A DNA stretch of 64,000 bases from an uncultured Chloroflexia bacterium (GTDB lineage Bacteria > Chloroflexota > Anaerolineae > CG2-30-64-16), in contig CAVZDU010000002.1 of NCBI GenBank assembly GCA_963774265.1, positions 845,552 to 909,551 of the forward strand, read 5' to 3'. The notes under the pieces were generated by a model, which saw nothing but the letters and a program-made list of their open reading frames with translations, searched no databases and was not told the origin of the DNA. A program made the position numbers and the translations under genes. Of this stretch, positions 26,983 through 59,368 are shown piece by piece; the first letter of the stretch is position 1; the number at the start of each line of letters is the position of its first letter.

Positions 26983-27046
26983 ATCACCACATCGATCACC
27001 ACACCTGGTGATGACGCGTCACCATATAATCGGGTATCTTTGGGTC
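26983..27046 (+). promoter_or_regulatory. TCACCA-type operator/promoter
   Basis: ATCACCA (26983), ATCACCA (26995), inverted TGGTGAT (27006), GTCACCA (27018), then TATCTTTGGGTC. Confidence 0.7.
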
Positions 27047-27079
27047 ATAGAAAAGAGCAAACGGAACCAGGGAGGAAGA

Positions 27080-27499
27080 ATGAACACAAGCACGACGATC
27101 ACCGCAATGGAATCGATGAAATCGAAACTTCAGACATTATGGATATTCCTAATGCTGAACTGGCTGTACTGCGATATCCTCAGCAACATGGAGGCTGGGG
27201 TTCTGCAGGGATACCTGACCGGAAGCGTGGGGAACATCCAGGTCACCCCAACGTTCTTGCTGGGCTCCGCGATCCTCATGGAGATTCCGATAGCCATGGT
27301 TCTCCTGTCCAGGGTGCTGAAATACCGGGCGAATCGTTGGGCCAACATCATTGCCGGGACGATCATGGCGGCTGTTCAGCTTGCGTCGTTCTCTTTTGGC
27401 ACGGGGCCAACGCCGCACTACGTGTTCTATTCGATCATCGAAGTCGCGTGTGCTGCATTCATTGTCTGGTCTGCCTGGAACTGGCGCAACCCCGCCTGA
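27080..27499 (+). CDS. DUF6326-like small membrane protein
   Basis: KSKLQTLWIFLMLNWLYCDI, MEIPIAMVLLSR.L.YRANRWANII; GGAGG RBS. Confidence 0.75.
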   Translation: MNTSTTITAMESMKSKLQTLWIFLMLNWLYCDILSNMEAGVLQGYLTGSVGNIQVTPTFLLGSAILMEIPIAMVLLSRVLKYRANRWANIIAGTIMAAVQLASFSFGTGPTPHYVFYSIIEVACAAFIVWSAWNWRNPA

Positions 27500-27649
27500 G
27501 ACGAGCGGACGAACAAAGTTGGCACATCGTATGCAGTGTTGCCGAGTAATCTGCAATGTGCGCCTATAATCGGGGCCGACTCGGAAGCGTTGGCCGTCCA
27601 GCTGCCACAGCGGCCCCGCATCCCAGCACACTGCAGTAGGAGTATCCGA

Positions 27650-29617
27650 ATGCGTTCTGGAAGAGTATTGGCAGTCTTGAGTTTAGTTGCCCTGCTCATC
27701 GGCCTGTTGCCGGCTGTCCCGGCAAGTGCCCAAACGAGCGCTCTCGGCCCGTCGCCCACCCGGCAGATCCCTGCCGGAGGATTCACCAGCATCCGGTCGG
27801 GGCCTGAGGGACCCGATGGACTTCAGCAGCCGGAATTGCGTCCCGGTTCCACACAAGACGAGGGAGCCGGCAGCTTCAACCGGCCCCGGCCCGGCTTCAA
27901 GAACGGCAAGTTCCCGAAGAAGCCGCTCGACGCCCCAACCGTGCCATCCAGCGCGGTCGCCAGCTCGAACCCTGAGCTCAGCCTCAGCTTCGACGGCCTG
28001 AATCACCGCCAACAACGGCTCGCGAACGGCGGCAACCAGTGGACCCTTGAGCCACCCGACCAGGGGCTCTGCGTAGGCAACGGCTACGTGGTCGAGGTCG
28101 TCAACAGCGTCATCCGTGTGTGGAACACGAGCGGCAGCGCGCTGTCTGGCGTGCAGGATCTCAATACGTTCTTTGGCTACCCCGCCGCCATCGATCGGGC
28201 GACGGGAGTAGTCGGCCCCGACGTGATCGACCCTCAGTGCTATTACGACCCGGACAACAACCGGTTCGTTGTCGACATCACGACGCTCGACGTGGATGCC
28301 GATGGCAACTACAACGGTAAGAACACGATCGACGTCGCTGTCAGTAACACAGGCGACCCAACCGGCGCCTGGACGATCTACAACATTCCAGCCCAAAACG
28401 ATGGGACGGATGGGACGCCCGACCACGGTTGTACGACCGACGGCACGACCCCGGGTCCGTGCTTCCAGGATTATCCGCACATCGGCGCCGACAAATACGG
28501 CGTCTACATCACGACGAACGAGTACGATCTGTTCGGACCCAGCTACAACGCCGCACAGATCTTCGCCTTCTCTAAGGCACAGCTTGCCGCGCACCCGGGG
28601 TCGATCAATATGACGCTGATCGAAAACCTCAGTGTCGACGGCTCGCCGGGCTTCACGGTTTGGCCTGCGACTTCACCGGCCGGGCAGTATGCAAGCGATA
28701 AGAACGGCACCGAATACTTCCTCAGCACGATCGCTGGGGACGGCTCCGAGACCGGGAACCCAACGGGCACCGCCCGGCGTATCGGCCTGTGGGCGGTCAC
28801 CAACACCCGGTCTCTCGGCTCGGCCACGCCGGCCCTCAATTGGACGAGCCGCCTGATCAACAGCGAGACATACGTGTTCCCGCCCCAGGCAGACCAAAAG
28901 CCCGGCAACATCCCAGTGGCCGACTGCATCAACGACGCCACCTCGCCTACGCCATTTGGCCCGGGCTGCTGGCAGATCATCGTCCTCCCGCCTGAACCGG
29001 CTCACAACGAGGTCGAGGTGCACATCGATTCGAACGATACCCGCATGCAACAGACGTGGTACGTGAACGGCGTGCTGTGGGGATCCGCCGATACGGCCGT
29101 GTGGGTCAATGGCGAGCTCAAGGCGGGTGTGGCCTGGTTCGCAGTGCAGCCGAAGATCAACGGCGTTGGGAAGGTGGAAGGCCGGGTCAGGATGCAAGGC
29201 TATCTTGCGCTGGCAAACAACAACCTGACCTACCCTGCCCTCGCGATGGGGACCAACGGCAAGGGCGCGATTGCGTTCACCGTCACAGGTGAGGACTATT
29301 ATCCAAGCGCGGGTTACGCGTCGATCGGTGCGGACGGCTCTGTAGGGCCGATTCACATCGCGCAGGCCGGGCTTGGCCCGGACGACGGCTTCACCGGTTA
29401 CAATGCCTTCGGGTATGTTCGCCCGCGTTGGGGCGACTACGGCGCTGCCGTGACCGACGGCAGCTCGATCTGGATCGCCTCGGAATACATCGGCCAGACC
29501 TGCACCTATGCCGAGTACTATCCCGTCCCGCCGAGTCTCGCCGACTTCGGGAGCTGTGGCGGCACGCGGACGTCCCTCGCCAACTGGGGCACGCGGCTGA
29601 GCAAACTGAATCCGTAG
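27650..29617 (+). CDS. Secreted hypothetical protein (~655 aa, beta-rich)
   Basis: Signal peptide; EPPDQGLCVG, DPQCYYD, DYPHIG, RWGDYG motifs. Confidence 0.8.
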   Translation: MRSGRVLAVLSLVALLIGLLPAVPASAQTSALGPSPTRQIPAGGFTSIRSGPEGPDGLQQPELRPGSTQDEGAGSFNRPRPGFKNGKFPKKPLDAPTVPSSAVASSNPELSLSFDGLNHRQQRLANGGNQWTLEPPDQGLCVGNGYVVEVVNSVIRVWNTSGSALSGVQDLNTFFGYPAAIDRATGVVGPDVIDPQCYYDPDNNRFVVDITTLDVDADGNYNGKNTIDVAVSNTGDPTGAWTIYNIPAQNDGTDGTPDHGCTTDGTTPGPCFQDYPHIGADKYGVYITTNEYDLFGPSYNAAQIFAFSKAQLAAHPGSINMTLIENLSVDGSPGFTVWPATSPAGQYASDKNGTEYFLSTIAGDGSETGNPTGTARRIGLWAVTNTRSLGSATPALNWTSRLINSETYVFPPQADQKPGNIPVADCINDATSPTPFGPGCWQIIVLPPEPAHNEVEVHIDSNDTRMQQTWYVNGVLWGSADTAVWVNGELKAGVAWFAVQPKINGVGKVEGRVRMQGYLALANNNLTYPALAMGTNGKGAIAFTVTGEDYYPSAGYASIGADGSVGPIHIAQAGLGPDDGFTGYNAFGYVRPRWGDYGAAVTDGSSIWIASEYIGQTCTYAEYYPVPPSLADFGSCGGTRTSLANWGTRLSKLNP

Positions 29618-29648
29618 GCCCCCGGCAGGCGTTGTCGGAAACACGACG

Positions 29649-29690
29649 AAGACCCGAAGGGCGCCGCGACGCCTTTCGGGTCTTGTCTTT
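29649..29690 (+). terminator. Intrinsic terminator-like hairpin
   Basis: AAGACCCGAAGGGCG / CGCCTTTCGGGTCTT stem followed by a T-rich tail. Confidence 0.6.
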
Positions 29691-29862
29691 GCGGGGTGGG
29701 CGTCATCCTGGCGGATCAAAGCGAGGTTCTACAAAAGATTGGCCTGCTGTTGGCAGAGTAGCTCCACCATCTCCTGGTGACTGCATCTGGCAGCGGAACG
29801 GCAGCAAAGTTGCCGCCATGGTGGGCGGCTTTCGCGTGGGGCGGGCCGGTCACCTGGGCTGG

Positions 29863-29958
29863 GCCTAACACTGCTTTCAGCTGACGGCTGCGCCGGTCGC
29901 GCTGTGGGTCGCGGCAGGTTCATTGGTGCAGCCGCAGGTGAACCTTGGGCCATTACCC
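29863..29958 (+). repeat. attC-like site 1
   Basis: GCCTAAC core; TTCAGCTGACGGCTGC pairs with GCAGCCGCAGGTGAA leaving an extrahelical base; ends in ATTACCC rather than GTTRRRY. Confidence 0.55.
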
Positions 29959-30380
29959 ATTGGTCCTCCCGGTTGACCTTACCCTCCGTCGCCATTCCCA
30001 TCCACCAAATCCGCCACCTGATCCAGCCTATCGACAGTCTCTTCGATAATGCAGGTTGCCGGCTCAGCCAAGTCGATCTCAATGGCGATGGCGGCCAGGT
30101 CCTCAGCGCTTCTAGCACGCCACCCTCTCGTGATAAAACGTCCAACCTTGACTGTCATCCCCTTTGCGACCATCGCAGTCTGTGATAGCATCTGCGCCAG
30201 GCGACACAAAACCCTGCATGATCGAATCGCGGGCGTGTGTAGAGTGTGCCGGCACGAGCGGCGAGCCGCTTGCGTAGATCAGGGTTTCGCTGATGGACTC
30301 CTTTGCGGGTGTCCGAAGGGTCACAAATGACCAAACGCTCACCCCATATCGATGTAGATCGCTCGCCATTCGGAGGCAGA

Positions 30381-31232
30381 ATGAAGAAAAAAGTATTGGC
30401 CTTCATCAAGATATTTGACGTCGTAATGCTCGCTGCGACCATCGTTTTTTGCGGTGTAATCTCCTTTCTGGACTTCTCTGGATTGCTCGGCAGTTCCGAG
30501 ATGAAGGATAGAATCCCCACCTTCACTCTGCTGGCAGTAGCGCTTTTGGGATTCTACATTTTGCTGGAACGAAGAGGCCAATTGTCGGGGATACATGACA
30601 AGGTTCAGACGATATCGCAATCCGGTGAAGTATTCACCCGGCGCATCATTGAGTCGCTAGATGGCGTGGACGTAACAAGATTCGAAAACCAGTTGTCGTG
30701 CCTGCAGTATGTGAACAAACGACTGCGCTCAACGAGCAAGAGCATTGATGATCTGTCATGGGCACCAGCAAGGATTACGAGCGATGACCTCGAAGTCATA
30801 ACAACAGAGAGGTCAAAGCATCGCGATCTCGTACATGCTACTGCAAGGAAAATACCATATCGCGAGATTTTCATATTCAACGAAGGTAGAAAGGAGAAGT
30901 TACGCGATTCGCTCTCACTGGACACACTAGGATACTCGTGCGGCTATTATGACACCGTGGGTAAGGCACCGCTGTTGCAGTTCATGATCGTTGATGAAGA
31001 GGAAGTCATCGTCTTGACCGGAGGCTATACGTATCTGGCGTTTCGGCACGCGAAGCTGGTTACCCTTTTTCGGCAGTACTATGAGGATATTTGGACAAGA
31101 TCGAGCAAGCTAAAGATCGGCATAAGAGCCGATTTTCATGAACTTGAGAAGGTTCTGGGCACGGAAAAAACTGCCGTTCTCAAGGAGAAAATGACGAGCG
31201 CAGTTCCTGCAGACTTAAATCAAGGGAGTTAG
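30381..31232 (+). CDS. Hypothetical protein, 2 N-terminal TM helices plus cytoplasmic domain (cassette-like ORF)
   Basis: GGAGG RBS, low GC, C-terminal FMIVDEEEVI...LFRQYYEDIW. Confidence 0.75.
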   Translation: MKKKVLAFIKIFDVVMLAATIVFCGVISFLDFSGLLGSSEMKDRIPTFTLLAVALLGFYILLERRGQLSGIHDKVQTISQSGEVFTRRIIESLDGVDVTRFENQLSCLQYVNKRLRSTSKSIDDLSWAPARITSDDLEVITTERSKHRDLVHATARKIPYREIFIFNEGRKEKLRDSLSLDTLGYSCGYYDTVGKAPLLQFMIVDEEEVIVLTGGYTYLAFRHAKLVTLFRQYYEDIWTRSSKLKIGIRADFHELEKVLGTEKTAVLKEKMTSAVPADLNQGS

Positions 31233-31440
31233 GCTATGCCAACTATCAGAATCCCCCGCCTTCCACTGATGTTATTATGGAGGAAACAACCCATCGCAAC
31301 CACTGCCACGATTCCAGCAGACCGGGGATAACCTTCTGGATCGTCATTTGCGGTGATGGCGGGTTGTGGTAGCGCCTGTTCCAGGCAAAGCGACAACTCC
31401 GTCCCAGGGCCGAGCCTGAAAACCAAGCGGGGAGGTTAAA

Positions 31441-31869
31441 ATGCGCGATTGGTTCAAGCTTCATAATGGAAAGCATCACAAAGTTGATGTTGATGAAGGA
31501 TTGTGGCTTCACTATTCGGAAACCTGTAATGTGCATGATCTAGCCATAGTGAGTTCAGCACGCTCAGCTTGGGCTTCTCGTTCAACGACAATCAACGAGA
31601 CTCGCCTTGCTCCCTCTCGCTTGGGTTGGGTAGCAATAAACTATGAAACAAGAGGCCGAATGGCCTTTTTCGTTCAACTAAATGACAAACGCGCAGCATG
31701 GCAACGGATTGAATGGCCGACTGGTTTTGATGAGAACTGGGACGAAGACAAAGTCAGAGAAGCGATCGACAATTTCATCTGCGTGGCGGAGTGTGAAGAG
31801 GAGCGGCGGGATATTACCCAAGAGAGCATAAGAGGCGGCGCAGGTGGTCGACTGCGCCATGCGGAGTGA
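31441..31869 (+). CDS. Hypothetical protein (cassette-like ORF)
   Basis: GGAGGT RBS, 142 aa, low GC. Confidence 0.6.
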   Translation: MRDWFKLHNGKHHKVDVDEGLWLHYSETCNVHDLAIVSSARSAWASRSTTINETRLAPSRLGWVAINYETRGRMAFFVQLNDKRAAWQRIEWPTGFDENWDEDKVREAIDNFICVAECEEERRDITQESIRGGAGGRLRHAE

Positions 31870-32064
31870 CTGCCCCCCCCTTTGTAATCATAGCGGTTTG
31901 TGATAGTATCCCCAAAGCCACACATCACAGCACTTCATCGCAGGCCATCTACTGGCGCATGTATCCTAAAGTGTGCAGCCGGAGCGACATATCCGACGTT
32001 TTGCAGGATAATGATTAGGGCCAGTAATGGGACACGCACCTGACGGGGGACCATCCGACGCAGC

Positions 32065-32811
32065 ATGACAGCAAAAGCTAAACTCGAAACAGCCGCCGCG
32101 ATTGCCGCCATCATCGGTGTAATAGTTGGTCTTCTGACGTGGCTGATGCCATTTGCCCCAATCGGACCTTCACCGCTAGCAAAGGCTTCTCAGACAGAGA
32201 CAACCATGCCAACACAAAGGGTTGGTTTGCCGACTCCTACAAATTCATTGAGAGCACGGGTGGAAACTAGGCCAAGCCCAACATCGGCTGTAACATCGCC
32301 AACGCCCACGCTGCCATTGCCGACTGCCACAAAACAGGCTCAACCCTCGGCTACGGCAATGCCACCAGAGACAATCCAGGGAGAGTTATCTGTGCCATGT
32401 AACAGCAAGGCAGGTGCTCGTCTTGATGTGTCCATTTCTGGACGTTACATGATCAGTTATGCTGGCGGTTCTTATTCGCCAGAGTCCTGGACGGGGCCAT
32501 CTGACCTCCATTGGCGTTCTCGCATAAACATTTATCGCAACAAAGCCGTGCAGTTCGGGGCGCGAGCGTTTCAACAAGGCGACAGCTCTGGCATCACTTA
32601 TTACGAGCCGACTTCGCCTGATGTTATCTTCCCCGGAAACTACGTTAAGATGACGCAATCACAAAGCGAAGACAGCGCACGAGCAGCACCAGCGGTGACC
32701 TTTGATCTGAACAAGGGTGATTTTTTGACTTTTGTGTGTATGGATGACCAACCGTACTTTGCCGACAACCAGGGAGCAATGCACTTCGTCTTTGTGGCGA
32801 CCGGCAGGTAG
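32065..32811 (+). CDS. Membrane-anchored protein with Pro/Thr linker and extracellular domain
   Basis: N-terminal TM helix, PTPT-rich linker, C-terminal DD..YFADNQG. Confidence 0.7.
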   Translation: MTAKAKLETAAAIAAIIGVIVGLLTWLMPFAPIGPSPLAKASQTETTMPTQRVGLPTPTNSLRARVETRPSPTSAVTSPTPTLPLPTATKQAQPSATAMPPETIQGELSVPCNSKAGARLDVSISGRYMISYAGGSYSPESWTGPSDLHWRSRINIYRNKAVQFGARAFQQGDSSGITYYEPTSPDVIFPGNYVKMTQSQSEDSARAAPAVTFDLNKGDFLTFVCMDDQPYFADNQGAMHFVFVATGR

Positions 32812-32892
32812 CGCCACCCTTTCCATTTCATGTTTTTGTCCCGTCGCGCCTGTTTTCAAGCAAGGTTAGGCTGCCACGGTTCGAGGCCACGG

Positions 32893-32987
32893 GCCTAGCT
32901 TTGCTTCCACCTGACGGCTGCACCGGTGGGGCTCGTGCGATTGCAAGTCGCGTCGGGCGCAGCCAAAGCTTGCAACAGCCATTAGGC
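32893..32987 (+). repeat. attC-like site 2 (degenerate)
   Basis: GCCTAGC...TTCCACCTGACGGCTGC...GCAGCC...ATTAGGC, lying between two co-oriented low-GC ORFs. Confidence 0.45.
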
Positions 32988-33010
32988 AGCAGAGGAGTGC
33001 TTTGGAAAGA

Positions 33011-34036
33011 ATGCACGCACTGAGATTCGGCGTTGTTCATTTGGTATTGGTCTCCTATTTGGCTGTGACTCTTACCGCTTGTGGCCCAAATCCAGCACCA
33101 TACGTTTCAGCAGAATTGGGGCCTCTTGAGATTGGCCTATCGTTAAATACAAACGGGGAAGTCTCAGTGGTTACAGGCATCTCATCCCCCAAGATACGAG
33201 TTGGCTTGGGACCAGTGAACCTGAGATTCGGCATTGATAACGCTGTTCAATTGACTCGACAGCGCAAGTATATGCTTTTTGTTCTTTGGCAGGACGCAGC
33301 AGGTCAAATATGGCGGGACGAGTATGAAATCGGGCAGAAATTCCGCGTAAGGTTTAACTCCCAGGAACATGTAAGGGAGATTGCCGGAGAAAACGACAGT
33401 GTCATAGTAGTTGTCGAGAAACTCCTGCCGCCAACCGGCCAGTCGACTCTCTCAGTGGCAATCCCTACCCTATCCCAGCAAGCTCCGGTACTATCGCAGC
33501 CGACAGTTCTGCCTGCAACGTCCATCGAGACAATGAATCGACAGCAGTTAGCAGTAGCTTTCGGAATTCCCAAGGATAGAATCGTCCGTGAAAGCCCAAC
33601 GAAATTTCACATCTTTGATTACCCGCTGAAGCCGGAGTATGGACAGGATAGCCAGGGGTACATAGTCAAGAACGGTCAACGTATATCGAGTCTGGCAGAC
33701 AAAGAAATCATGAATTTCGGGCCTCCTGAAGATCCATACAAGTATTACCAAGGGCCTATCAATTGGCGTATTCCGACGAGCGGAGAGGTTGGCTTCTGCA
33801 AAGCAGGAATATGGACAGGCGGAAACAGCGGTGGATGGACAAACACCTTGCGCTATGCTGCCAACGATAATGGCAGCGTGTTCATTGAAGGCGCACCCAG
33901 AGCTTGGATTACTTGTGATGGGAACCCAGCCGGAACTTGGGCTCTTGATGAAGCTATGCGCGCCAAGAACGATCCTGGAGCAGTAGGCGTGTACTACTGG
34001 GACAGCAAGTCCAATCAATGGATTAACGTAAAATAG
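33011..34036 (+). CDS. Putative lipoprotein (cassette-like ORF)
   Basis: Lipobox LTAC, ~341 aa, low GC. Confidence 0.7.
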   Translation: MHALRFGVVHLVLVSYLAVTLTACGPNPAPYVSAELGPLEIGLSLNTNGEVSVVTGISSPKIRVGLGPVNLRFGIDNAVQLTRQRKYMLFVLWQDAAGQIWRDEYEIGQKFRVRFNSQEHVREIAGENDSVIVVVEKLLPPTGQSTLSVAIPTLSQQAPVLSQPTVLPATSIETMNRQQLAVAFGIPKDRIVRESPTKFHIFDYPLKPEYGQDSQGYIVKNGQRISSLADKEIMNFGPPEDPYKYYQGPINWRIPTSGEVGFCKAGIWTGGNSGGWTNTLRYAANDNGSVFIEGAPRAWITCDGNPAGTWALDEAMRAKNDPGAVGVYYWDSKSNQWINVK

Positions 34037-34122
34037 CGATAGTTCTCCACAACGGCAGTAAGGCGCGGTTCGCCTTCATGGGCGGCGCTCGCGTGGGGGG
34101 CGGGGCTGGTTACCAGGGTGGG

Positions 34123-34233
34123 GCCTAACAGTCGCTTCCTGCCGACCGCCGGAGCTCGGCGGTTAACCGCTTTTCGCCGTCAAACTGACGATTCGCGTCC
34201 ACCCGGCGGCGGCTGAACCGCGGGCCATTTGCC
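34123..34233 (+). repeat. attC-like site 3
   Basis: GCCTAAC; TTCCTGCCGACCGCCGG pairs with CCGGCGGCGGCTGAA leaving extrahelical bases; right core degenerate (ATTTGCC). Confidence 0.55.
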
Positions 34234-34608
34234 TATTGGTCCTCCCGGTTGACCTTACCCTCCGCCGCCATTCCCACCCTGCTGTTTGTACTTGTCAAGC
34301 AAAAAGGGGCTCTCCCCCACTTTTCGTGATGCTCAGTAGGGGTAAGTTTCGCTTGACAAATACAGTCGGAGTCGCCGAATTCCAGACTCAGACTCTCGAG
34401 AATACCGAGTCTTGTCCTATATACACCTCCTTTCCCACGACTGAGGATAGCGTGGTTCGATGACGAAACAACGCGGCTCGTAAACCTCGACCAGCATTTG
34501 AGGGATGTCCTCTGCCACGTGAACCTTCGTCTGAAGAATTGCTCGAAACTGGCTGGCTTTGTTGAAGGGGTGCCTAAAAAGCCAATACAACCGGCCGCTT
34601 TGTATACT

Positions 34609-35836: not shown

Positions 35837-35847
35837 GAGGCTTCCTC

Positions 35848-35931
35848 CTCATCCTTCCCCATCCGATACTCGATGTTGTAGTTGATGATGAAACCCAGTC
35901 TTTTATCGGAGAAGTCGTACCAGCGGGCGAG
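35848..35931 (-). repeat. Relic copy of the MTase 3' end (LARWYDFSDKRLGFIINYNIEYRMG)
   Basis: About 80 bp homologous to 37973-38053 (LARHYGFTDEELDFIINYDIKYRMG). Confidence 0.8.
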
Positions 35932-35986
35932 CTTCGATTGATCCATAGCAGGCCGCGATACGGGGCGTTGCATCACCTCACTCGAT

Positions 35987-37810: not shown

Positions 37811-37859
37811 GGCACGGTCCCTTTTGTTTCGGTGCCCTTGTCAATGTTGACAAGACCAT

Positions 37860-41497: not shown

Positions 41498-41505
41498 ATT
41501 CCTCC

Positions 41506-49648: not shown

Positions 49649-49713
49649 TTCCAACTCCTCCGGTCGTATTAGCCGACCAATTCTGCCGGTCACCAACCCC
49701 GGGCTGACAGCAC

Positions 49714-49962
49714 TCACGTGGATTGGATGATCTGAAATTGCTGGATCGTTATGCCCAGCCCGTGCAGCCTGCGCACCAGCCCGACGATGCCCGCTTGATC
49801 GGTGTTCACATCGAGCACGGTGACTTCGTCCAACTGTCTGGCCTCATCGACGATGATCTCCGCCGAACCGCCGAAGCCTTGCAGCCACTCCACGTCGACT
49901 CGGCCACGGATCTCAATCCGGTAATGTGTCGTTGGATCGAAGATGGGTTTTGCTTCATTCAT
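49714..49962 (-). CDS. Small LAL-associated protein (divergent homolog)
   Basis: YRIEIRGRV...W...F...T.L....DQAGIVGLVRRLHGLG pattern; GGAGG RBS. Confidence 0.75.
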   Translation of the reverse strand: MNEAKPIFDPTTHYRIEIRGRVDVEWLQGFGGSAEIIVDEARQLDEVTVLDVNTDQAGIVGLVRRLHGLGITIQQFQIIQST

Positions 49963-50011
49963 GGCTTGCCGCGTTCCTCCCATCCCCTCATCTGGTTTCA
50001 CTTTCGATAGC

Positions 50012-50080
50012 AGTCTATCGGAGCAGACAAAAAAAGGAACCACATAACCATGTGGTTCCTCGAGAGATAAATATGTGGTT
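50012..50080 (-). promoter_or_regulatory. AACCACAT-type operator/promoter downstream of LAL4
   Basis: AACCACAT direct copy, perfect GGAACCACAT-N4-ATGTGGTTCC palindrome (50036-50059), -10-like TAGACT at 50017-50012. Confidence 0.65.
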
Positions 50081-50093
50081 TTTTCCGTCGCCG

Positions 50094-52829
50094 TCAGATA
50101 AAATTCATCTCGCGGGCTGTCTCGATCGCCTGCGCCCGCTTGTTGACCTGCAGCTTACTGTAGATGTTCTTGACGTGAAACTGGACCGTGTTCAGGCTGA
50201 GGAAGAGCTGCTGGCCGATCGCTTCATACGTCAGCCCCCTGGCCAGGCAACGCAGTACTTCGAGCTCGCGCTCGCTCAACAGCGTCTCGTGCCTGCCTCC
50301 GGTTTCGGGTCGCACCGGTTCGCAGGTCATCGCTTCCGTGAGACGGTCGGCATATGCCATAAGGGTTTCGTGTGCCAGCCGGGGCCTGAGCTCGGCCAGC
50401 AGGGCTTTTAGGAGGTCGCATTCATCCACAAAGATGCGGAAAAGCCCCGTGGGTGCGGCTGTGGTCAACGCCGCCTCGAGCATTTTCAGCGCTTCATGCT
50501 TCTTCCCCGCAGCCTGGTAGAGCAAGGCCCTGGCGATGGCGATTTCCACGACCGGGCCGGTGAAATCATGGGCCGCGGCGAAATCGTGCTGGCGCTCCAG
50601 GTAAGCATGAACGTCCTGCAGCGGGGTTGCGCCGGGCTGCCCTTTTGCCAGGCGCGCCAGCACATGGGCTGCGCGGAGATAGCTCTCGAAGTGGGCCATG
50701 CTCATGGGGACCACGCTGTGGATCACGGCCAGCTTGCCGTACTCGATCCCTGACTGGGCCAACCAGGCCCGGGCATCCTTCGACACGTTCGGATCGGTGG
50801 GCCAATGACGCATCAACAGGTGGTGGCGCAAAGCCTGGGCATAGAGCGCGCCTTCGGGCCAGGCCTCTTCGAGGGTCTTCACCGCTTCCAGCATGGCCGG
50901 CCGGTCCCCCTGGATGGCGCGCAAGCGGGCCAGCGCGGTATAGCCGGTATAGTGCGCCTCATAGTCCCCGGTCCAGCGGATCAAATCGAGCCCTTCCAGC
51001 AAGACCGGTTCGGCTTCTGCCAGGCAGTTGTATTCCAGGAGGATGCTGCCCTTCAGGATGCTAAGCCCCCCGATCGGCGGGAAATGCTGACCGGCCCGGA
51101 TTTTGTGGAAGCGTTCGATGTAGGCGTCACATAGGTGCAGGGCTTCGTTCAAGCGTCCCGCCAGCAGGGCGATCAGGACCAGGTTGATCGGCCCGTAGAT
51201 GGCGGCGTAGAGATTGCCTCCGGCCAAACCGTCCTCCAGGGTTTGTCTGTAGGCGAGCTCGGCAGCCTGAGTATCCGCCAGCACCAGGTAACCGTAGCCG
51301 ATGTTCAGGCCGTTGACGCTGCGAATCGCCCTTTCCCCCTCCGGCAAGAGCCGCAGGGCTTCCCGGGAGAGAGCGATCAGCGGTTCCGGTCTTTCGCCGA
51401 TCAGCGCGGGCGATCGCAGCAAATAAGCCCGAATGGTGGCCGCGTGTCCGGCGACCAGGGCGCGCAGCGCTTCCCCCGCGTTCACCATCTCCAGGGCACG
51501 GTCCGCGGCCTGTAGCGCCCGGTCCACCTCGTCCCTGCGCGTGCCGCGTTTCATCAGGACCAACGCCCAGGCCTTGTAGATGCACAACATGGGGGCAGCC
51601 TGCTCGACCGCCTCAGGCAGCCTGTCGAACCAGCTCAGGACCACGGTGACCCGACCTTGATACAACTCCAGGAGGGCGTTTCGCTCGATCAGGTCCGCGG
51701 CTCGGGTCAGATCGCTGTCCTGCAGCGCGTGATCGATTGCGGTGTGGATTTGTCCATGTTCCTCGTACCAGCGGCTGGCGCGGCGGTGAAGCACGGGGAT
51801 GAGCCCGGGCTGGGAGCGGGACAACTGGTTGCGCAGCAAGTCGGAGAAAAGATGGTGATAGCGGTACCAATGGCGTTCTTCGTCCAGGGGGATGAGGAAG
51901 AGGTTCGCGGCGTCCAGCTTGGCCAACAGCGTGCCGCTATCAGTCCGCCCGGTGAGCGCGTCGCACAGCGGCCCGCTGAGGCGATTGAGAACCGCGGTTT
52001 GCAGCAGGAACGCGCGGGTATCTTCGGGCTGCTGCCGGATCACCTCGTCGGTCAGGTAGTCCAATATGTGGCGGTTGCTGCCGGAGAAATCGGCGATGAA
52101 AGACGGCAGGTCGGCCCGTTTTTGCATCGACAGCGCGGCAAGTTGCAGGCCCACCGCCCAGCCTTCGGTGCGATCCTCCAAGGCAGCGACATCCTGCTCG
52201 GAAAGCGTCAATCCCATGACGCTCCCCAGGAACGCTTTGGTCTCTCCCCGGGTAAAGCGCAGATCCCCGGCGCGGATTTCGGTGAGCCGGTCCTGGGCTC
52301 TTAGCCGCGACAAGGGCAGGTCGGGGTCTTCGCGTGTCGTGAGCACCAGGTGGAGCTGCGGAGGCAGGTGATCGAGCAAGAATCCCATCACCTGCAGAAC
52401 AGGGGGGTTATGGAGCAGGTGAAAATCGTCCAGCACCAGGATGAGCGGATCTGTTCGGGCGGCAATCTCGTTGAGCAAGCCCGCCAGCACCTTCTCAATG
52501 GCAGGAAGCTGTGGCGCCTGCAGGACGCCGAGCACCGATCCCCCGATTTCCTCGTCTGCCCCCTGGAATGCGGCTGCCAGGTGAGCCAGAAAGCGCGTCA
52601 GCTCGTTGTCGGCCTCGTCCAGGGACAGCCATGCCGCCGGAAGGCCGTTCTGGTTGAGCCAGTCGACCACCAGGGTGGTCTTGCCGAATCCCGCCGGCGC
52701 CGAGACCAGGGTCAGCTTGCGTTTTGCGGTCGGTCCCTCATTCAATAATTCGATCAGGCGGGGGCGTGGCACCAGGTTGGGACGGAGCGGAGGGATGAAT
52801 AGTTTGGAGGTTAACAGTTTTATGGCCAT
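50094..52829 (-). CDS. MalT-like LAL regulator 4 (intact, ~911 aa)
   Basis: [28 protein letters not shown] ...FLSLNTVQFHVKNIYSKL. Confidence 0.95.
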   Translation of the reverse strand: MAIKLLTSKLFIPPLRPNLVPRPRLIELLNEGPTAKRKLTLVSAPAGFGKTTLVVDWLNQNGLPAAWLSLDEADNELTRFLAHLAAAFQGADEEIGGSVLGVLQAPQLPAIEKVLAGLLNEIAARTDPLILVLDDFHLLHNPPVLQVMGFLLDHLPPQLHLVLTTREDPDLPLSRLRAQDRLTEIRAGDLRFTRGETKAFLGSVMGLTLSEQDVAALEDRTEGWAVGLQLAALSMQKRADLPSFIADFSGSNRHILDYLTDEVIRQQPEDTRAFLLQTAVLNRLSGPLCDALTGRTDSGTLLAKLDAANLFLIPLDEERHWYRYHHLFSDLLRNQLSRSQPGLIPVLHRRASRWYEEHGQIHTAIDHALQDSDLTRAADLIERNALLELYQGRVTVVLSWFDRLPEAVEQAAPMLCIYKAWALVLMKRGTRRDEVDRALQAADRALEMVNAGEALRALVAGHAATIRAYLLRSPALIGERPEPLIALSREALRLLPEGERAIRSVNGLNIGYGYLVLADTQAAELAYRQTLEDGLAGGNLYAAIYGPINLVLIALLAGRLNEALHLCDAYIERFHKIRAGQHFPPIGGLSILKGSILLEYNCLAEAEPVLLEGLDLIRWTGDYEAHYTGYTALARLRAIQGDRPAMLEAVKTLEEAWPEGALYAQALRHHLLMRHWPTDPNVSKDARAWLAQSGIEYGKLAVIHSVVPMSMAHFESYLRAAHVLARLAKGQPGATPLQDVHAYLERQHDFAAAHDFTGPVVEIAIARALLYQAAGKKHEALKMLEAALTTAAPTGLFRIFVDECDLLKALLAELRPRLAHETLMAYADRLTEAMTCEPVRPETGGRHETLLSERELEVLRCLARGLTYEAIGQQLFLSLNTVQFHVKNIYSKLQVNKRAQAIETAREMNFI

Positions 52830-53133
52830 AGGGAGCCCCCAACCAAATTGGTTCGCATCGCCGGCTGGACAGGAATTGGCCTCACTATACGTTAAAGCAC
52901 ACATTACTTCAAAAGTGTAGGTGAGATTACTGTTCAGCAATGGCCATGTAGTGGCAAAGGAGGCTTGCGTATCAATACGACAGTGCTGTCCCGTGTCCCC
53001 TGCAAACAGCATTGCCCCTTACGACGAAGACGTGTGCGTTGTGTTACATTAGCGCGCGTTGCATGTGCCGCGCTTCCTGCGGATCGATACGGTGATTGAG
53101 AAAACAAGGACAGGCAAGGTGCGGAGGATTGAC

Positions 53134-53934
53134 ATGACGAGGGCATCTGATGACTCGTGGATGACCGGCGCCGCGTATGAAGCATACATGGGCCGTTGGA
53201 GCCGCCAGCTTGCGCGGGTATTTGTCGAATGGCTGCATCCGAAATCCTTCGCTCACTGGCTTGAGATCGGATGCGGTACAGGAGCGCTCACGTCCGCGAT
53301 CTGCGATCTCTGCGAGCCAGCATCGGTTGTCGCCTGCGATCCGTCAGAGCCGTTCGTCGAGCACGCTCGGAGAAATCTTCCGGACGCCCGCGTATCGTTT
53401 GTTGTTGCCGGAGCCGACGCCCTTCCAAGCCGAGACGACGGATTCGACGCCGTCGTTGCAGGGCTCGTCCTGAACTTCCTGCCGGAGCCGGGACATGCAG
53501 TGGCGTCGATCCGCGAGCGCCTTCGTCCGGGAGGCACCGCCGGCGCTTACGTCTGGGATTACGCGGAAGGCATGGAGTTTCTGCGGTACTTCTGGGAAGA
53601 AGCGGTCGCCCTAGACCCGCGCGCAGCCGCCCTCGACGAAAGCCGGCGTTTCTCGCTCGCTCAGGCGCCGGCCCTGGTTTCACTCTTTCGCGCGGCTGGG
53701 CTTGCGCAAGTGGAAACTGCCCTGCTGGATATTCCGGCCGACTTCGAAGACTTCGATGACTTCTGGAAGCCGTTTCTCCGCGGGACTGGGCCGGCGCCAG
53801 GCTACGTTATGTCGCTGGATCTGGCAAGCCGCGAGTTGCTGAGAGAGCGGCTCAGGCAGCGCCTGCTCCCCGGAAGCGACGGGCGCATTCAACTTCGGGC
53901 GCGCGCGTGGGCGGTGCGTGGCCTCTCGAACTGA
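53134..53934 (+). CDS. Class I SAM-dependent methyltransferase
   Basis: AYEAYMGRWS, LEIGCGTG, FDAVV, LRPGG. Confidence 0.9.
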   Translation: MTRASDDSWMTGAAYEAYMGRWSRQLARVFVEWLHPKSFAHWLEIGCGTGALTSAICDLCEPASVVACDPSEPFVEHARRNLPDARVSFVVAGADALPSRDDGFDAVVAGLVLNFLPEPGHAVASIRERLRPGGTAGAYVWDYAEGMEFLRYFWEEAVALDPRAAALDESRRFSLAQAPALVSLFRAAGLAQVETALLDIPADFEDFDDFWKPFLRGTGPAPGYVMSLDLASRELLRERLRQRLLPGSDGRIQLRARAWAVRGLSN

Positions 53935-53993
53935 CGATCGTGATGATCGACTGCTTTCTTCCCTGTCCCGGTACAAAGCGTCACTGAGAACCG

Positions 53994-54019
53994 CCGCCCG
54001 GACGTTGACGTCCGGGCGG
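53994..54019. terminator. Hairpin between convergent genes
   Basis: CCGCCCGGACG-TTGA-CGTCCGGGCGG. Confidence 0.55.
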
Positions 54020-54024
54020 TCTGG

Positions 54025-56255
54025 TCAATGGGGGCCCATCAGGCCTGGCTCCCTAAACTCCTCCCCGATCTGCCACTCCTCCAGCGCGGCCGGAGAGACC
54101 GCCATGCCCGACAGGAAGCTGACCGACTGATAGAAATACGACTGCCCGTATGAGTCCGGGCCATCGAACACCCAGATAAGCCAGCCATATGGTTTGCCAA
54201 AGACCGCATCCCCCCACAGGCTTGTTGCGGTGAAGCTGCCAACGTTCCCCAGATCCGGGGTATACCAGTAAGCGTCCGTGTCCAAATCCGTAAACACAAT
54301 GCGATAGGTATCTCCTGCGATGCCTCGCTGTTGCCAGGTGAAGGTGACCGGCAGGGCTTCCGCTGCACCGGCTGGCGGCGACAGCAAGGAGACATTCGCG
54401 ATATCGAAGTCGCCGCCGGCCATTGTGCTGCCGCTCGTATACGCGGTGATACTTGGAGTCAGCCAGAACGCGACCCACAAAGGATTGTTGGGGGACCGGA
54501 AGCGCACCCAGTACTCCTGTCCGGAGCCCAGGCTCGCGGCTCCCATGAAGCGATAATGCCCCGCGCTATCGGTGGTGGTCGTCGCTAAGGTGGTAGTCTC
54601 CGACCCATCGTAGAAGCGCAGCTGCAACTCGATGCCTGATGCGGCCGCTCCCTGGTAGGTAACGCGACCGTTGATGCCGTCGTTCGACGGTGCCGCGGTG
54701 GCGGTCGCGGTGCGGTCGCGGTTGCAGTCGCGGTAGGAGTGCTGGCGGGCGTCCTCGTCGGCGGCGCCTGCGGAGCGGCTGACGAACCATTCAACACCAG
54801 CGGCAGGTAGACCCTTCTCGCGCCCGCAATGCGGGTGGCGGTCGGCGTGGGGGAAGCCGTCGCCGTAGGGGTGGCGGTCGGCGGGGGAGACGATGGGACC
54901 CGCCCCCAGGCAGGACGACCGGCATCGTCGGCGAGTTTGTGCAGGCCCGAGCCGTCGCGGTTCACGATCCACAGGCTGCTCGTCGGATCCCACACCTCCG
55001 CCACCCACTCGAAGACGATCTGCCGGCCGTCGGGCGAGATGCTGAGCCCGCGGGCGACCTGGTCGTCGGGGAGGTGCGTCACCTGGGTGATCTTTTGCGT
55101 CGCGAAGTTGTACTCGAAGATGTTGGTGAAGGTCCCAGGTCGACGGAGCGCTTGGTGAAGAGGAAACCGGACGCGTCGGGCAGCCATTCGATGTCGTACA
55201 CCTCCTCGGCGCCGTAGTAGGCGTTGATGGGCACCAGCATCGTGCCACCGGATGGGTCGGCCGCGGTGTTCAGGTAGATCCCCGCGACGTCCAGGTAGAT
55301 CGCGTCGTCCTTCGAGGCATAGAGATACTGATCGCTGTGCGCGGCAGTCGGGCTCCAGGCGACCAGGGTGGGCACTGCGTGCTGGACCACCGGGAGCGGC
55401 TGGCCGGTGGATGCCGTAGGGCGGGACTGGCGGGGATCTGCTTGATGCTGGAGAAGCTCCGCATGCCGTAGGCGAGCGCCGAGCCGTCGGCCTTCCAGGA
55501 GACCTTGCCGGCGCCGAACATGAGGGCGCCGGCCCCCGGTATGGTGAGGCTTCCTCCGAACACCGTCTGATCCGGCTGGACGTCCGCGTAGGGCGGATAC
55601 CCCTGCACACGGTCCTGCCCTGGGGCCGAGGTACATGCCGACTGCGGGCTGCAGAACGCCCGGCCCGAGATCGGCGACGTTGTCGAATCTCATCCTGCCG
55701 CTGCTCGGACAAACTTGACGCCCGGCGCGCCCTGCACGTAGACCTCTGCCAGGGGACCTGCGGAGTTGTTGACGTCTACCTCCACCGAGCCCTTTGGCAG
55801 GCCGGCGAGCGCGGCGCAGGCCGGCGAATTGGTGACGCGCCGGTAGCCCGCGCCGTCGTAGCCGATGGCGTAGACGTCACTCTCGTACAGGAGCACGCCT
55901 CCTCGTGCTCGCTGGAGAAAGCGAGCTCGCGGCCGTCGGGCCGCCAGGCGAGATCGTACGCCGGATAGGGGGCGAGCGGCTCGGGAGCGGTCCACAGCAC
56001 ACGGTCGCCGGTGCCGTCAGGCGAGATGACGTGGATGTCGTACGTCGAGCGCTGCACGTAGGCGATGGTCCCCGAGCCGCCGGCGGATGCAACGGTTTCC
56101 GGGTTGCCCTCGAAGCCAGGTGGATCGATGGGCACCGCGAAGGTGGGCAATGCGTTCATTGCCGCGAGCAGGCCGATAACAACGGCCAGCGCCGCGAGGT
56201 GCGCCGGCCGGCGCAGGGAGCCAAATGGCGAGTGTCTACCTCTCTGGGTGAACAT
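54025..56255 (-). CDS. Secreted TolB/PD40-like beta-propeller protein with Pro/Thr linker (heavily frameshifted)
   Basis: Signal peptide; WRPDGRELAF, WSP, ISPDGRQIVF repeats; VYLPLVL motif. Confidence 0.7.
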
Positions 56256-56286
56256 CTGAATCCTCCTGGGTGCAAGATCGATTTCG

Positions 56287-56348
56287 ATCATAAAGGAAAA
56301 TCGGCCGCAGTGGACTCGACAAGAAGTTGTACAAGAAGTGATACAAAC
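56287..56348 (-). promoter_or_regulatory. TTGTAC direct-repeat promoter, copy 2
   Basis: GTTTGTATCACTTCTTGTACAACTTCTTGTCGAG-22 bp-TATGAT. Confidence 0.6.
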
Positions 56349-56358
56349 GCGGGATGCC

Positions 56359-56393
56359 TTTCGAAGTACGGACGGGCGGTGTATAATCGGTCC
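56359..56393 (+). promoter_or_regulatory. Putative leaderless promoter of LAL5
   Basis: TATAAT at 56382-56387, 6 bp before ATG 56394. Confidence 0.6.
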
Positions 56394-59213
56394 ATGTCTG
56401 CGCCGATTTTAGCCACCAAGCTGTATATCCCCCCGCATCGATCGAACGTTGTCCTCCGCCCCCGCCTGATCGGGCGGCTCAACGAGGGCCTCCGCCAAAG
56501 CCATGGCTTTGGACGCAAGCTGACCCTCATCTCTGCCCCCGCCGGCTTCGGCAAAACCACGCTGGTCAGCAGTTGGTTGGCTGGCTTGCCGACGAGGGCA
56601 GCGAGTCAGGAAGAAAACGCGAATCCAAAATCCAAAATCCAAAATCCAGTGGCCTGGCTTTCGCTGGACAAAGACGATAATGATCTGACGCGTTTTCTGG
56701 CGTATTTCATCGCGGCCTTGCAGACCATCGCGCCCACGGTTGGAGAAGCGACGTTGGGCGCGCTCGCAGTCGTCGCAGCCGCCGCCGACCGAATTGCTTC
56801 TGACGACCCTGCTCAATGAAATGGCCGCCATCCCGGACCATTTCGTCCTCGTCCTTGACGATTACCACGTGATTGAACCTGAACCGGTTGACGCGGTCGA
56901 CCGTAACTGTCGACGACGCGCTCGCCTTTCTGCTCGACCACCTGCCGCCCCAGATGCACCTGGTCATCACCACCCGTGAAGACCCCCAGCTACCCCTGGC
57001 CCGGTACCGCGCCCGGGGCCAACTGACCGAGCTGCGCGCCGCCGACTTGCGTTTCACCCCCGCCGAAGCCGCCGAATTTCTCAACCAGGTGATGGGCCTC
57101 GAATCTCTCCGCGGAAGACATCGCGGCCCTGGAAGCCCGCACCGAAGGCTGGATTGCCGGCCTGCAATTGGCCGCCCTGGCATGCAGCCTTGCCATGCAG
57201 GGGCGATCAGACACCGCCCGTTTTATCCAGGCTTTCACCGGCAGCCACCGTTTTGTGCTGGACTACCTGGCCGAAGAGGTGCTTCATCGCCAGCCCGAAC
57301 GGGTGCGCTAGCTTCTTGCTGCAAACCGCTATTCTCGACCGGTTAAGCGGCCCTCTGTGCGATGCCGTCACCGGGCGAGACGATGGCAGAGAGATGCTGG
57401 ATGCCCTGGAGCGCGGCAACCTGTTCGTCGTGCCGCTCGATGACAAGCGCCAGTGGTATCGTTATCACCACCTCTTCGCCGATGTTTTGCAGTCGCGCTT
57501 GATGGAGGAGCAGCCTGATCAGGTACCTGGCCTGCACCGGCGGGCAAGCGAGTGGTACGAGCAGAACGGTCTGCCATCCGATGCGATCCGCCATGCGCTT
57601 GGCCGCCGAGGATTTCGAGCGCGCGGCGGGCCTGATCGAACTGGCCTGGTCAGCCATGGACGTCAACATGCAATCCGCCACGTGGCTCGGTTGGGCAAGG
57701 GCATTGCCGGACGAGCTGATCCGTGCCCGGCCTGTGCTCAGCGTTGGCTATGCCTGGGCGCTACTGGATGGCGGTGAGATGGAGACCTGCGAGGCTCGGT
57801 TGCGGGACGCCGAACGGTGGCTGGACACGCCAGCGGACGCGGAAGAGGCCGGAACGCCATCGAACGAGATGGTCGTCGTGGACGAAGAACAATTTCGGTC
57901 GCTGCCCGCGACGATCGCCACCGCCCGAGCCTACCGCGCCCTGGCCCTCGGCGATGTACCCGGCGCCGTGAAGAACGCGCGGCAGGCGCTCCAACTCACA
58001 CCGGAGGAAGACTATATCAGGCACGTGCAGGCAACCTCGCTCCTGGGGATTGCCCAGTATGCGAGCGGAGACCTGGAGGCAGCCGACCAGTCCCTGGCCG
58101 ATTTCCTGGCGAATCTGTGGAAAGCGGACGACATCCTGACCGCAATCGGCATCACATTTGTCCTGGCCGACATCAGGACGGCACGAGGCCGTCTCCACGA
58201 GGCAGTCCGCACCTACCAGCAGGCATTGCAGCTCGCGGCCAGTCAGGGCGAGCCACTGCCCGTGGGGACGGCGGACCTGTACCGGGGAATCAGTGAGCTT
58301 TACTGCGAACGGGGCGACCTGGAAGCCGCCGCACAACACTTGTTAACAGGCAAGAAGCTGAGCGAGCAAGCAGCACTCACCGGTTGGCAGCATCGCCTGT
58401 GCGTCGCCGAGGCTCGCATAAAGGAGGCCCAGGGAGACCTGGATGGCGCTCTCGAGCTGCTGGACGAGGCGGAGCGCCTGTATGTCAGGAGTCCACTGCC
58501 CGATGTGCGTCCCATCGCGGCACTGAGGGCACGGATTTGGGTTGCGCAGGGCAGGCTGACCGAAGCATTGGCCTGGACACGTCAGCGGGGCCTATCCATT
58601 GACGACGACCTCAGCTACTTGCGTGAGTTCGAGCACCTCGTGTTAGCCAGGGTACTTATCGCCCGGTATCAGCGCGAGCGGGTAAATGGAGCCATTCACG
58701 AGGCCCTGGGCCTCCTGGAGCGCCTCTTGCGTGCGGCGGAAGAAGGTGGGCGGACGGGAAGCGTGATCGAGATCCTGGTGCTTCAAGCGCTTGCTCACGA
58801 GGCAGAAGGCAACCTGGCTCCTGCCCTCGCGGCGTTGGAGCGGGCGCTGACCCTGGCGGAGCCGGAGGGCTATGTCCGCATCTTCGTGAACGAGGGCGCG
58901 GCCCATGGCGCGGCTGCTGCAAGAGGCCGCGGTGCGCGGTATCGCCGCGAACTATGTGAGTCAATTACGGGCAGCTTACGGGCAGGTTGCAGGCAGAATG
59001 CCTGTCTCTCAGCCCTTGATCGAGCCATTGAGCGAACGTGAGATGGAAGTGCTCAGGCTGCTCAAAACCGAATTGAGCGGCCCGGAAATTGCCCGCGAGC
59101 TCATCGTGTCACTGAGCACCCTGCGCACCCACACCCAAAACATTTACACCAAGCTTGGCATGAACAATCGCCGGGCGGCCGTCCGCCGCGCTGAGGAACT
59201 CGATTTGCTGTAA
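56394..59213 (+). CDS. MalT-like LAL regulator 5 (several frameshifts)
   Basis: [25 protein letters not shown] region similar to LAL3, HTH ...[18 protein letters not shown]. Confidence 0.9.
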
Positions 59214-59304
59214 CGAACGGGCAATCACCGACCCGCGCCCTGGCAGGTGTGTCGAGCCATCTGCCGGGGCGCTTTTGTTTCCCCTGCAGCCTCCCGATCT
59301 ATCG

Positions 59305-59368
59305 ATCATCACACCGTTCATCACATGTGATGATGATGCCTCATCACATCATCCTGTATCTTTGGGTC
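59305..59368 (+). promoter_or_regulatory. TCATCA-type operator/promoter
   Basis: ATCATCA (59305), TTCATCA (59317), inverted TGATGAT (59328), CTCATCA (59340), TATCTTTGGGTC; aligns without gaps to 26983-27046. Confidence 0.7.

Follow-up and report, generated by a model that had tools for sequence, protein, structure and literature searches.

The window analysed in this study is a stretch of 64,000 nucleotides from an uncultured Chloroflexia bacterium (contig CAVZDU010000002.1, positions 845,552 to 909,551, assembly GCA_963774265.1). It carries two paralogous genes for MalT-like regulators of the LuxR family, LAL3 and LAL5, each followed by a predicted operator of four hexamer boxes. The boxes read TCACCA behind LAL3 and TCATCA behind LAL5, and the analysis concerns the relation between this difference of one base and the amino acids of the two recognition helices, in the window and in a large number of homologous loci.

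Regulator genes LAL3 and LAL5

LAL3 (24128..26935, plus strand) is a single open frame for a protein of 935 amino acids, assigned from its open reading frame (ORF) and from Pfam and NCBIfam matches. Pfam analysis revealed a C-terminal LuxR/GerE helix-turn-helix (HTH) domain (GerE, residues 874-929, 53 bits against a cut-off of 23.5) preceded by a MalT-type TPR sensor (TPR_MalT, residues 501-840, 213.6 bits against a cut-off of 45); no phospho-receiver domain was found by Pfam in the 935 residues. At the N-terminus AAA_16 scored 24.8 bits, below its cut-off of 32.6, and a GFGKTT motif is visible. The NCBIfam MalT model aligned to residues 27-932 with 396.7 bits, below the equivalog cut-off of 537, and a Pfam scan of the neighbouring genes revealed no maltose genes beside LAL3. 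Judging from the MalT score and the Pfam content, LAL3 is a MalT-like member of the large ATP-binding LuxR (LAL) family and not MalT itself.

LAL5 (56352..59213, plus strand) was identified by tblastn of LAL3 against positions 56000-59400 as a paralogous MalT-like regulator lying in seven pieces (frames 2, 3, 1, 2, 3, 1 and 2). The pieces are separated by six +1 frame breaks, near 56735-56758, 56895-56909, 57060-57100, 57295-57308, 57599-57600 and 58894-58953. Comparison with contigs from four public metagenome runs, two of them spanning about 2.2 kb (57193-59372) at about 93% identity, showed that these omit one letter at 56765, 57097/57100, 57309, 57599/57600 and 58900/58902, positions that coincide with or adjoin five of the six breaks; hence relatives read through LAL5. 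The contigs come from relatives and not from the source organism, the highest share of sampled words in any sequencing run being 0.12. The extra bases are either assembly errors or real mutations. Two observations favour error without proving it: the end of the window is the end of the contig, and genes downstream of LAL5 also look frame-shifted.

The recognition helix of LAL3, SLNTLRTHTKN, is encoded at 26831..26863, and that of LAL5 at 59109..59141 within ORF 58905-59213, the last open piece of the gene (both plus strand). Both helices are as quoted in a first-pass annotation that had been made from the sequence alone. Alignment with NarL of E. coli K-12 places a Lys/Gln difference between the two helices at NarL Lys192 and an Asn/Ser difference at NarL Ser185, with an invariant arginine at Lys188 and a threonine at Val189. 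Each difference is one base on the plus strand: the lysine codon AAA (26858-26860) of LAL3 against the glutamine codon CAA (59136-59138) of LAL5, and the asparagine codon AAC (26837-26839) against the serine codon AGC (59115-59117). Regulators are described below by their residues at the 185 and 192 equivalents, in that order; LAL3 is thus N,K and LAL5 is S,Q.

The best matches of the HTH among solved structures were ChrA, LiaR and VraR (E 7e-9 to 1e-7), followed by NarL (4e-5). In NarL, according to the accessible part of PMC10853779, Lys188, Val189 and Lys192 make base contacts in the major groove, which bears out the earlier claim that the Lys/Gln column corresponds to a base-contacting residue. 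In LiaR, Lys174 is poised to bond the O6 of guanine and Lys177 is equated with NarL Lys188 (accessible part of PMC4482077), so that Lys174 is the equivalent of Ser185. Both variable residues therefore occupy base-reading positions of solved relatives. Nothing usable was found in the open-access literature on which base NarL Lys192 touches.

The operator pair in the window

The predicted operators with their promoters lie on the plus strand at 26983..27046 (LAL3) and 59305..59368 (LAL5), on the same strand as the regulator genes and starting 48 and 92 bases, respectively, after the stop codons. The two sites align without gaps and are identical at 50 of 64 positions. TCACCA boxes behind LAL3 start at 26984, 26996, 27006 (minus strand) and 27019, and TCATCA boxes behind LAL5 at 59306, 59318, 59328 (minus strand) and 59341, giving the same offsets of 0, 12, 22 (inverted) and 35 and a geometry score of 16/16 at both sites. 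The fourth is the only box position at which the two sites differ, and it accounts for four of the 14 differences, all C to T (read as G to A in the inverted box). The gapless alignment and the recurrent C-to-T change described by the first-pass annotation were thus both recovered. When 14 differences were distributed at random over the 64 positions, one or another of the six box positions was changed in all four boxes in 0.95% of 1,000,000 trials, a figure that does not require the same base change in each box.

Boxes 2 and 3 of LAL3 form a 7-2-7 palindrome, TCACCAC-AC-CTGGTGA. A -10-like TATCTT follows box 4 at both sites (27035-27040 and 59357-59362). A perfect TATAAT is also present at 27025-27030, directly after box 4 of LAL3 and upstream of the family-wide TATCTT; it was not seen at the LAL5 site, at the site of a third paralog described below or in the consensus of 95 loci, the individual loci being unchecked. 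Either TATAAT or TATCTT may serve as the -10 element of the LAL3 site. A genome-wide search for the 3' element TATCTTTGGGTC with at most one mismatch found it in an operator context only at the two window sites, with six further matches lacking boxes.

Paralogs in the same genome

A scan of the whole genome (5.5 Mb) for the box geometry, in which any base was allowed at positions 3 and 4, returned a score of 16/16 at three sites only: those behind LAL3, LAL5 and a third paralog, each made of one uniform box type. The third paralog lies on the same contig outside the window, encodes 951 amino acids with the helix AVSTLRTHTKS and is followed by four boxes that all read TCCCCA. All three regulators are assigned a putative ATPase region, a MalT-type TPR sensor and a C-terminal GerE HTH. 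Genome G079 shares its trio with G000, the genome of the window: at box positions 3 and 4, AT occurs with S,Q, AC with N,K and CC with S,K. A trio of this kind suits insulation between paralogs. In genome G390 an N,K regulator with TCACCA-type boxes (L226) occurs together with an S,K regulator with TCATCA boxes (L229); both are lysine regulators, so that any insulation there makes no use of glutamine.

A further site with a geometry score of 14/16 was observed near base 559 of contig C7 of G000, at the contig start, with the boxes TCCACA, TCCACA, TGCACA and ACCTCA; this may be an operator whose regulator lies beyond the end of the contig.

Survey of homologous loci

Homologous loci were collected from 41 related genomes, from a public collection with one genome per species (the best 80 of 575 confirmed hits) and from metagenome contigs (the best 80 of 560), using peptide patterns that lie outside the recognition helix. 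The four-box layout, with a score of at least 13/16 in the 600 bases that follow the stop codon, was found at 115 of 193 distinct loci. The other 78 stand outside the residue-box comparison: 29 belong to other subfamilies, with lysine at the 188 position, and 49 belong to the same subfamily and either have no detectable site in this geometry or lie on a short contig.

The consensus of 95 sites is AAATCACCACaTCAATCACCACATGTGGTGATGaCg.CTCACCACATt..cttgTATctT.TGg. Boxes 2 and 3 of this consensus form the 7-2-7 palindrome TCACCAC-AT-GTGGTGA, the arrangement that defines a NarL-type site, and a conserved TAT..T lies ten bases past box 4. If the TATCTT hexamer occupies -12 to -7, the centre of the palindrome falls at -43.5.

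Several broken pairs were observed. The operators L215 and L242 stand behind regulator remnants of about the last 20 residues, L241 is an operator with no regulator upstream, and L042 is a glutamine regulator whose operator is missing; the four are uninformative for the residue-box comparison. Genome G278 carries an intact N,K regulator with TCACCA boxes (L237) in addition to the orphan TCACCA operator L242, for which control in trans is conceivable.

Covariation between helix residues and box bases

The residues at the 185 and 192 equivalents were compared with the majority dinucleotide at box positions 3 and 4 for the 115 loci. All 43 N,K loci carry AC. The 31 S,K loci carry CC in 25 cases, AC in three and a mixture in three, and the four H,K loci carry AC in three cases and a tie at position 3 in one. 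AT was found at every locus with glutamine (14 S,Q, two N,Q, one T,Q and one A,Q), at all four A,R loci, at both H,S loci and at the single S,S locus. Three of the four S,R loci are AT and the fourth is tied between A and G at position 3, T being present at position 4 in all four; the five N,R loci are all AC. The two H,N loci are AA or mixed, and the single S,E locus is CG (TCCGTA).

Altogether 21 glutamine loci were found, 18 of which could be scored; in all 18 the majority box is TCATCA, in none TCACCA. L110 and L153 score under the threshold, yet have TCATCA-type boxes, and L042 has no site. Counted per box, glutamine loci carry AT in 60 and AC in 2 of 70 boxes, and lysine loci carry AC or CC in 265 and AT in 13 of 287 boxes. 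Within the subfamily examined, glutamine at the 192 equivalent occurs with T:A at box position 4 without exception, and lysine occurs with C:G in the great majority.

The first-pass annotation had proposed mutual information between the Lys/Gln column and the box base as a check on its claim. For 65 columns of the domain and 109 loci, a further six having been set aside for their tied majorities, the analysis revealed that the Lys192-equivalent column shares 0.857 of 0.964 bits with box position 4, far ahead of the other 64 columns; the second-best is the Ser185 equivalent, with 0.30 bits. The annotation had also named glutamine homologs with TCACCA boxes as an observation that would speak against its claim. 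None exists among the 18 scoreable loci, and a distant glutamine homolog with TCACCC boxes (L232) is taken up below.

Glutamate occurs at the Lys192 equivalent in one locus on a metagenome contig, L160 (TIALSTVRTHTESI). Its boxes are TCCGTA in three cases and TCCCCA in one, and they differ at two adjacent bases from those of its lysine relatives.

Independence of the changes on trees

Unrooted trees were computed from the C-terminal 600 residues without the twelve helix columns, for rows of at least 400 residues, which left out 31 of the 115 rows. On the 84-row tree four Lys/Gln changes were found, and all four coincide with a C/T change at position 4. The same four changes appear on an 85-row tree to which LAL5 was added with X at two of its breaks. 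Addition of five later loci gave a 90-row tree with five Lys/Gln changes, all five accompanied by C/T, and position 4 changes six times in all. The Lys/Gln changes sit on branches with at least 95% support. Comparison of lysine with non-lysine loci gave nine independent pairs, about six differing the same way, three unchanged and none opposite (median p = 0.031). For Asn/Ser among lysine loci there are five pairs, four the same way and one unchanged. Ten glutamine loci form one clade. An earlier tree from the last 110 residues, with 13 of 112 branches supported and 11 apparent Lys/Gln changes, was replaced as too poorly resolved.

LAL5 groups with L035 (N,Q), L091 (H,N) and L085/L090 (N,K), and LAL3 groups with L108, L087, L092 and L111. 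LAL3 and LAL5 thus belong to different old lineages and are neither recent duplicates nor sister paralogs, which argues against divergence in one step. The description of the pair as a natural one-residue specificity change finds only partial support, since the regulators differ at two helix positions as well as in lineage.

Operator-side searches

Searches were also started from the operators. The exact pattern TCACCA-N6-TCACCA-N4-TGGTGA occurs at 10 sites in nine of 401 genomes of the class, and the reversed control pattern occurs at none. At eight of the 10 sites an intact regulator lies directly upstream, in each case N,K; of the other two, one follows a regulator cut to about 20 residues and one has no upstream regulator. 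The corresponding TCATCA pattern, with at most one mismatch allowed, matched 29 times. In 22 cases the locus lacks an HTH, and these are taken as chance matches in other sequence, not each having been examined. The seven true operators are the window's own, L208 (S,Q), L221 (T,Q), L212 (N,Q), L217 (N,K), L207 (S,K) and L215, whose regulator is truncated. Across the homologs, covariation of the kind expected of cognate regulator-operator pairs is present, with the exceptions of L217/L224, L207/L229 and L232.

Comparison with known systems

NarL/FixJ-type regulators (NarL, LiaR, VraR, DosR) have the same GerE HTH as the LAL regulators, and the base-reading positions 185, 188, 189 and 192 align. 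They differ in that LAL3 has no receiver domain, its HTH ending a STAND-kind protein of about 930 residues. NarL binds a 7-2-7 inverted repeat, as a dimer centred at -43.5 on the yeaR promoter (accessible part of PMC10853779); LAL operators add two half-sites flanking such a palindrome.

The apparent domain order of LAL3 is that of MalT, and E. coli MalT carries Thr, Lys, Thr and Arg at the equivalents of NarL 185, 188, 189 and 192. The E. coli malP promoter region has two direct hexamers (TCATCC and TCCTCC) and one inverted hexamer (GGATGA) similar to the LAL boxes, found with the motif GGA(T/G)GA. MalT multimerises and binds several MalT boxes cooperatively (accessible part of PMC4381067), and the four-box layout would fit multi-box binding of this kind. 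MalT boxes follow TC[A/C]TCC, whereas LAL boxes follow TC[A/C][C/T]CA, and the LAL operators are unlike those of MalT in their fixed four-box layout, their 7-2-7 palindrome and their position directly behind the regulator's own gene.

Recognition codes have been worked out earlier for the LacI family. The logic is the same, in that regulators lying beside their own sites across genomes are used to match helix residues to operator bases (accessible part of PMC4052901), and the fold differs from that of a GerE HTH in a MalT-like protein. In the open-access literature we found no residue-base code for GerE domains in MalT-like proteins and no description of this Chloroflexota-type family of regulator-site pairs. 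Co-evolution of regulators with their operators is already known in kind; the case described here concerns a LuxR-type domain and offers an unusually clean natural data set, though one with clear exceptions.

Probable co-evolution of regulator and operator

Since residues at both helix positions track bases of the boxes, the difference between the LAL3 and LAL5 boxes is best read as co-evolution of each regulator with its own site. We consider it probable that this reading is correct and that glutamine at the 192 equivalent is the main partner of T:A. The data show the anatomy, the covariation and the equivalence of the residues, from which binding, activation, direct contact and the order of events are inferred. 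The regulator would multimerise like MalT and place four HTH domains on the four boxes, thereby activating the downstream promoter. Each site would overlap the promoter of the next operon, in the direction of the regulator gene, with its palindrome centred near -43.5, as for the NarL dimer on the yeaR promoter. The residue at the 192 equivalent goes along with the base pair at position 4, lysine mostly with C:G, glutamine with T:A and, at a single locus, glutamate with G:C. The residue at the 185 equivalent would modify this reading: N,K goes with AC and S,K with CC, and with arginine at 192 asparagine gives C and serine or alanine gives T. Glutamine appears to demand T:A, lysine being less exclusive.

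Lysine usually pairs with guanine, glutamine with adenine and glutamate with cytosine. The combinations seen on the lower strand at position 4 (Lys-G, Gln-A and Glu-C) are these usual pairings, which fits direct readout by the 192-equivalent residue.

The part of the first-pass annotation that explained the G-to-A switch by the Lys-to-Gln change is supported by the mutual information, by the 18 of 18 glutamine loci, by the lysine of all eight intact regulators next to exact TCACCA operators and by the five of five changes on the tree. It does not stand as a complete explanation, since Asn/Ser also tracks the boxes, lysine regulators occur beside TCATCA and the glutamine regulator L232 has TCACCC. 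This is not a simple one-residue switch, because the 185 position matters, arginine loci follow that position and lysine occurs beside TCATCA boxes.

Several observations weigh against the co-evolutionary reading. L217 and L224, which are the same place, encode the helix MVSLNTMRTHTKNI next to four TCATCA boxes; this helix is identical to that of L077, a TCACCA locus. At L207/L229 (S,K), three boxes read TCATCA and the remaining one TCCTCA. L232, from a distant subfamily in the genome of L217, has glutamine (ISVNTVKTHLQRI, TVKTHLQRI) with TCACCC in three boxes and TCATCC in one, boxes that resemble those of lysine members of its own subfamily. With arginine at the 192 equivalent, position 4 follows the 185 equivalent (asparagine with C, serine or alanine with T), which implies that the code is context-dependent. 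For box position 3 the best-correlating columns lie outside the helix, because most TCCCCA loci belong to one clade. Sign tests on the Lys/Gln changes gave p = 0.125 for four events and 0.0625 for five, 0.05 being unreachable with so few pairs. A sigma-70 consensus scan predicted no promoter at the LAL3 or LAL5 operator, which may be read as a weak or absent -35 element and equally as plain lack of support. The -10 element, the centre at -43.5 and the activator role are proposed on the strength of sequence and analogy. Finally, if the six breaks are real, LAL5 would yield no full-length protein in this organism.

Alternative explanations

It is conceivable, and in our view rather unlikely, that the operator changed first. 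Lysine would tolerate both C:G and T:A, the boxes would have become TCATCA by drift or selection under a lysine regulator, and glutamine would later have sharpened the preference, for example by keeping the regulator off the TCACCA operators of a paralog; the Lys-to-Gln change would then have locked the switch in without being its cause. Such a history is suggested by L217/L224, a lysine regulator of LAL3's lineage with four perfect TCATCA boxes and the nearest relative of LAL3 in the set (66% identity over 565 columns), in whose genome (G343, 91% complete) no TCACCA-type paralog was found. It also agrees with the 13 of 287 boxes of lysine loci that are TCATCA, and with G000 and G079, where operators of the TCACCA and TCATCA types coexist and the TCATCA regulator has glutamine. 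Against it, any insulation between the two lysine regulators of G390 (L226 and L229) makes no use of glutamine, the direction of change is unreadable from unrooted trees, and the proposal rests on one or two intermediates. As a path, tolerance of T:A by lysine followed by fixation of the preference by glutamine is plausible.

That the Asn-to-Ser change at the Ser185 equivalent retargeted LAL5, with glutamine as a passenger or minor tuner, is improbable. With arginine at the 192 equivalent, all five asparagine loci have TCACCA and all eight serine or alanine loci have T at position 4 (seven of them TCATCA-majority); TCATCA is found in some of the boxes of the S,K loci L097, L040, L125 and L207, and LiaR Lys174, at the equivalent position, approaches guanine (accessible part of PMC4482077). 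These points are countered by the N,Q regulators L052, L035 and L212, which are TCATCA-majority without serine, by the S,K regulators, which mostly have TCCCCA (25 of 31) and not TCATCA, and by mutual information at position 4 of 0.30 as against 0.857 for the Lys/Gln column.

We attach equally little weight to an inherited correlation, in which the Lys/Gln column and the box base are clade markers and either the real determinants are located at other positions or a different protein reads the boxes: ten glutamine loci do form one clade, relatedness does inflate mutual information and position 3 shows such a clade effect, but the four or five separate Lys/Gln changes, each on a branch of at least 95% support, each go with C/T while position 4 changes only five or six times tree-wide, and Lys-G, Gln-A and Glu-C (glutamate at one locus, L160) match the usual pairings. 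The column is, moreover, a known base-contacting position (accessible part of PMC10853779).

A possible compact recognition code

Returning to co-evolution of the two partners, we tentatively propose, as a possibility somewhat short of even, that the family uses a compact and evolvable code. The residue at the 192 equivalent would pick position 4 (lysine C:G, glutamine T:A, glutamate G:C and possibly asparagine A:T) and that at the 185 equivalent would set position 3. Single-base codon changes could then retarget four boxes at once and insulate the paralogs of a genome from one another (three here and three in G079), with a permissive lysine regulator such as L217/L224 as a bridge. If true, the family would provide ready-made orthogonal pairs of activator and operator, together with a natural record of their divergence.

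How duplicated regulators stay free of cross-talk and which helix residues set the DNA preference of LuxR/GerE domains is usually a matter of bench work on single proteins. Here more than 100 natural regulator-site pairs can be read from sequence alone because each regulator adjoins its own four-box site, and these pairs single out two residues and two bases. The lysine regulator with TCATCA boxes is a candidate intermediate, relevant to the question of which partner, site or protein, is the first to change. For circuit design, the family would be of use as a set of mutually insulated activators.

Downstream genes and other features of the window

The first gene after the LAL3 operator encodes a DUF6326 membrane protein of 139 amino acids (27080..27499, plus strand; Pfam DUF6326, 105.4 bits). 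The first gene after the LAL5 operator encodes a protein of 83 amino acids (59402..59653, plus strand; YEIRIKGHLD...) that belongs to no Pfam or NCBIfam family and whose nearest Atlas clusters are unnamed hypothetical proteins of Chloroflexota. A homolog of this protein also follows the third paralog, and small proteins of about 80 residues of this type (YEIRIKGHLD...GPVVDQAALHGLL) lie behind many LAL operators in many genomes, for example in L001 at 4868-5110 on the minus strand. Pfam gave no family for the downstream proteins of 83, 693, 270 and 250 amino acids, and NCBIfam gave no match for those of 83, 81, 693 and 250 amino acids. Candidate controlled genes include those for DUF6326, the 83-residue protein and DUF4386.

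Between the LAL5 stop codon and the boxes, a consensus scan found a terminator-like hairpin (59235..59272, plus strand; 15 pairs, 11 of them G-C) followed by TTTTGTTT. Similar hairpins are visible at many homologous loci.

The region from 56000 to 64000, the contig end, is dense in apparent frame shifts: besides the six in LAL5, the genes at 59646-60458 and 60334-61324 (oxidoreductase-like) change frame. The shifts in these last 8 kb may reflect low assembly quality at the contig end.

Three further LAL genes of the window show the same design with other boxes. Two, at 2264-2620 and 3939-6800, share the helix LALDTVKGHNRRI and are followed by CAACACC, CAACACC, an inverted GTGTC and TAACACC, these CAACACC-type boxes lying near 2552-2600 and 6729-6775. 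Another LAL gene, at 50094-53012 on the minus strand (region 49930-53012), encodes the helix LSLNTVQFHVKNI; behind it lie AACCACAT repeats, one copy of which is inverted, and then another small gene of the YRIEIRG type.

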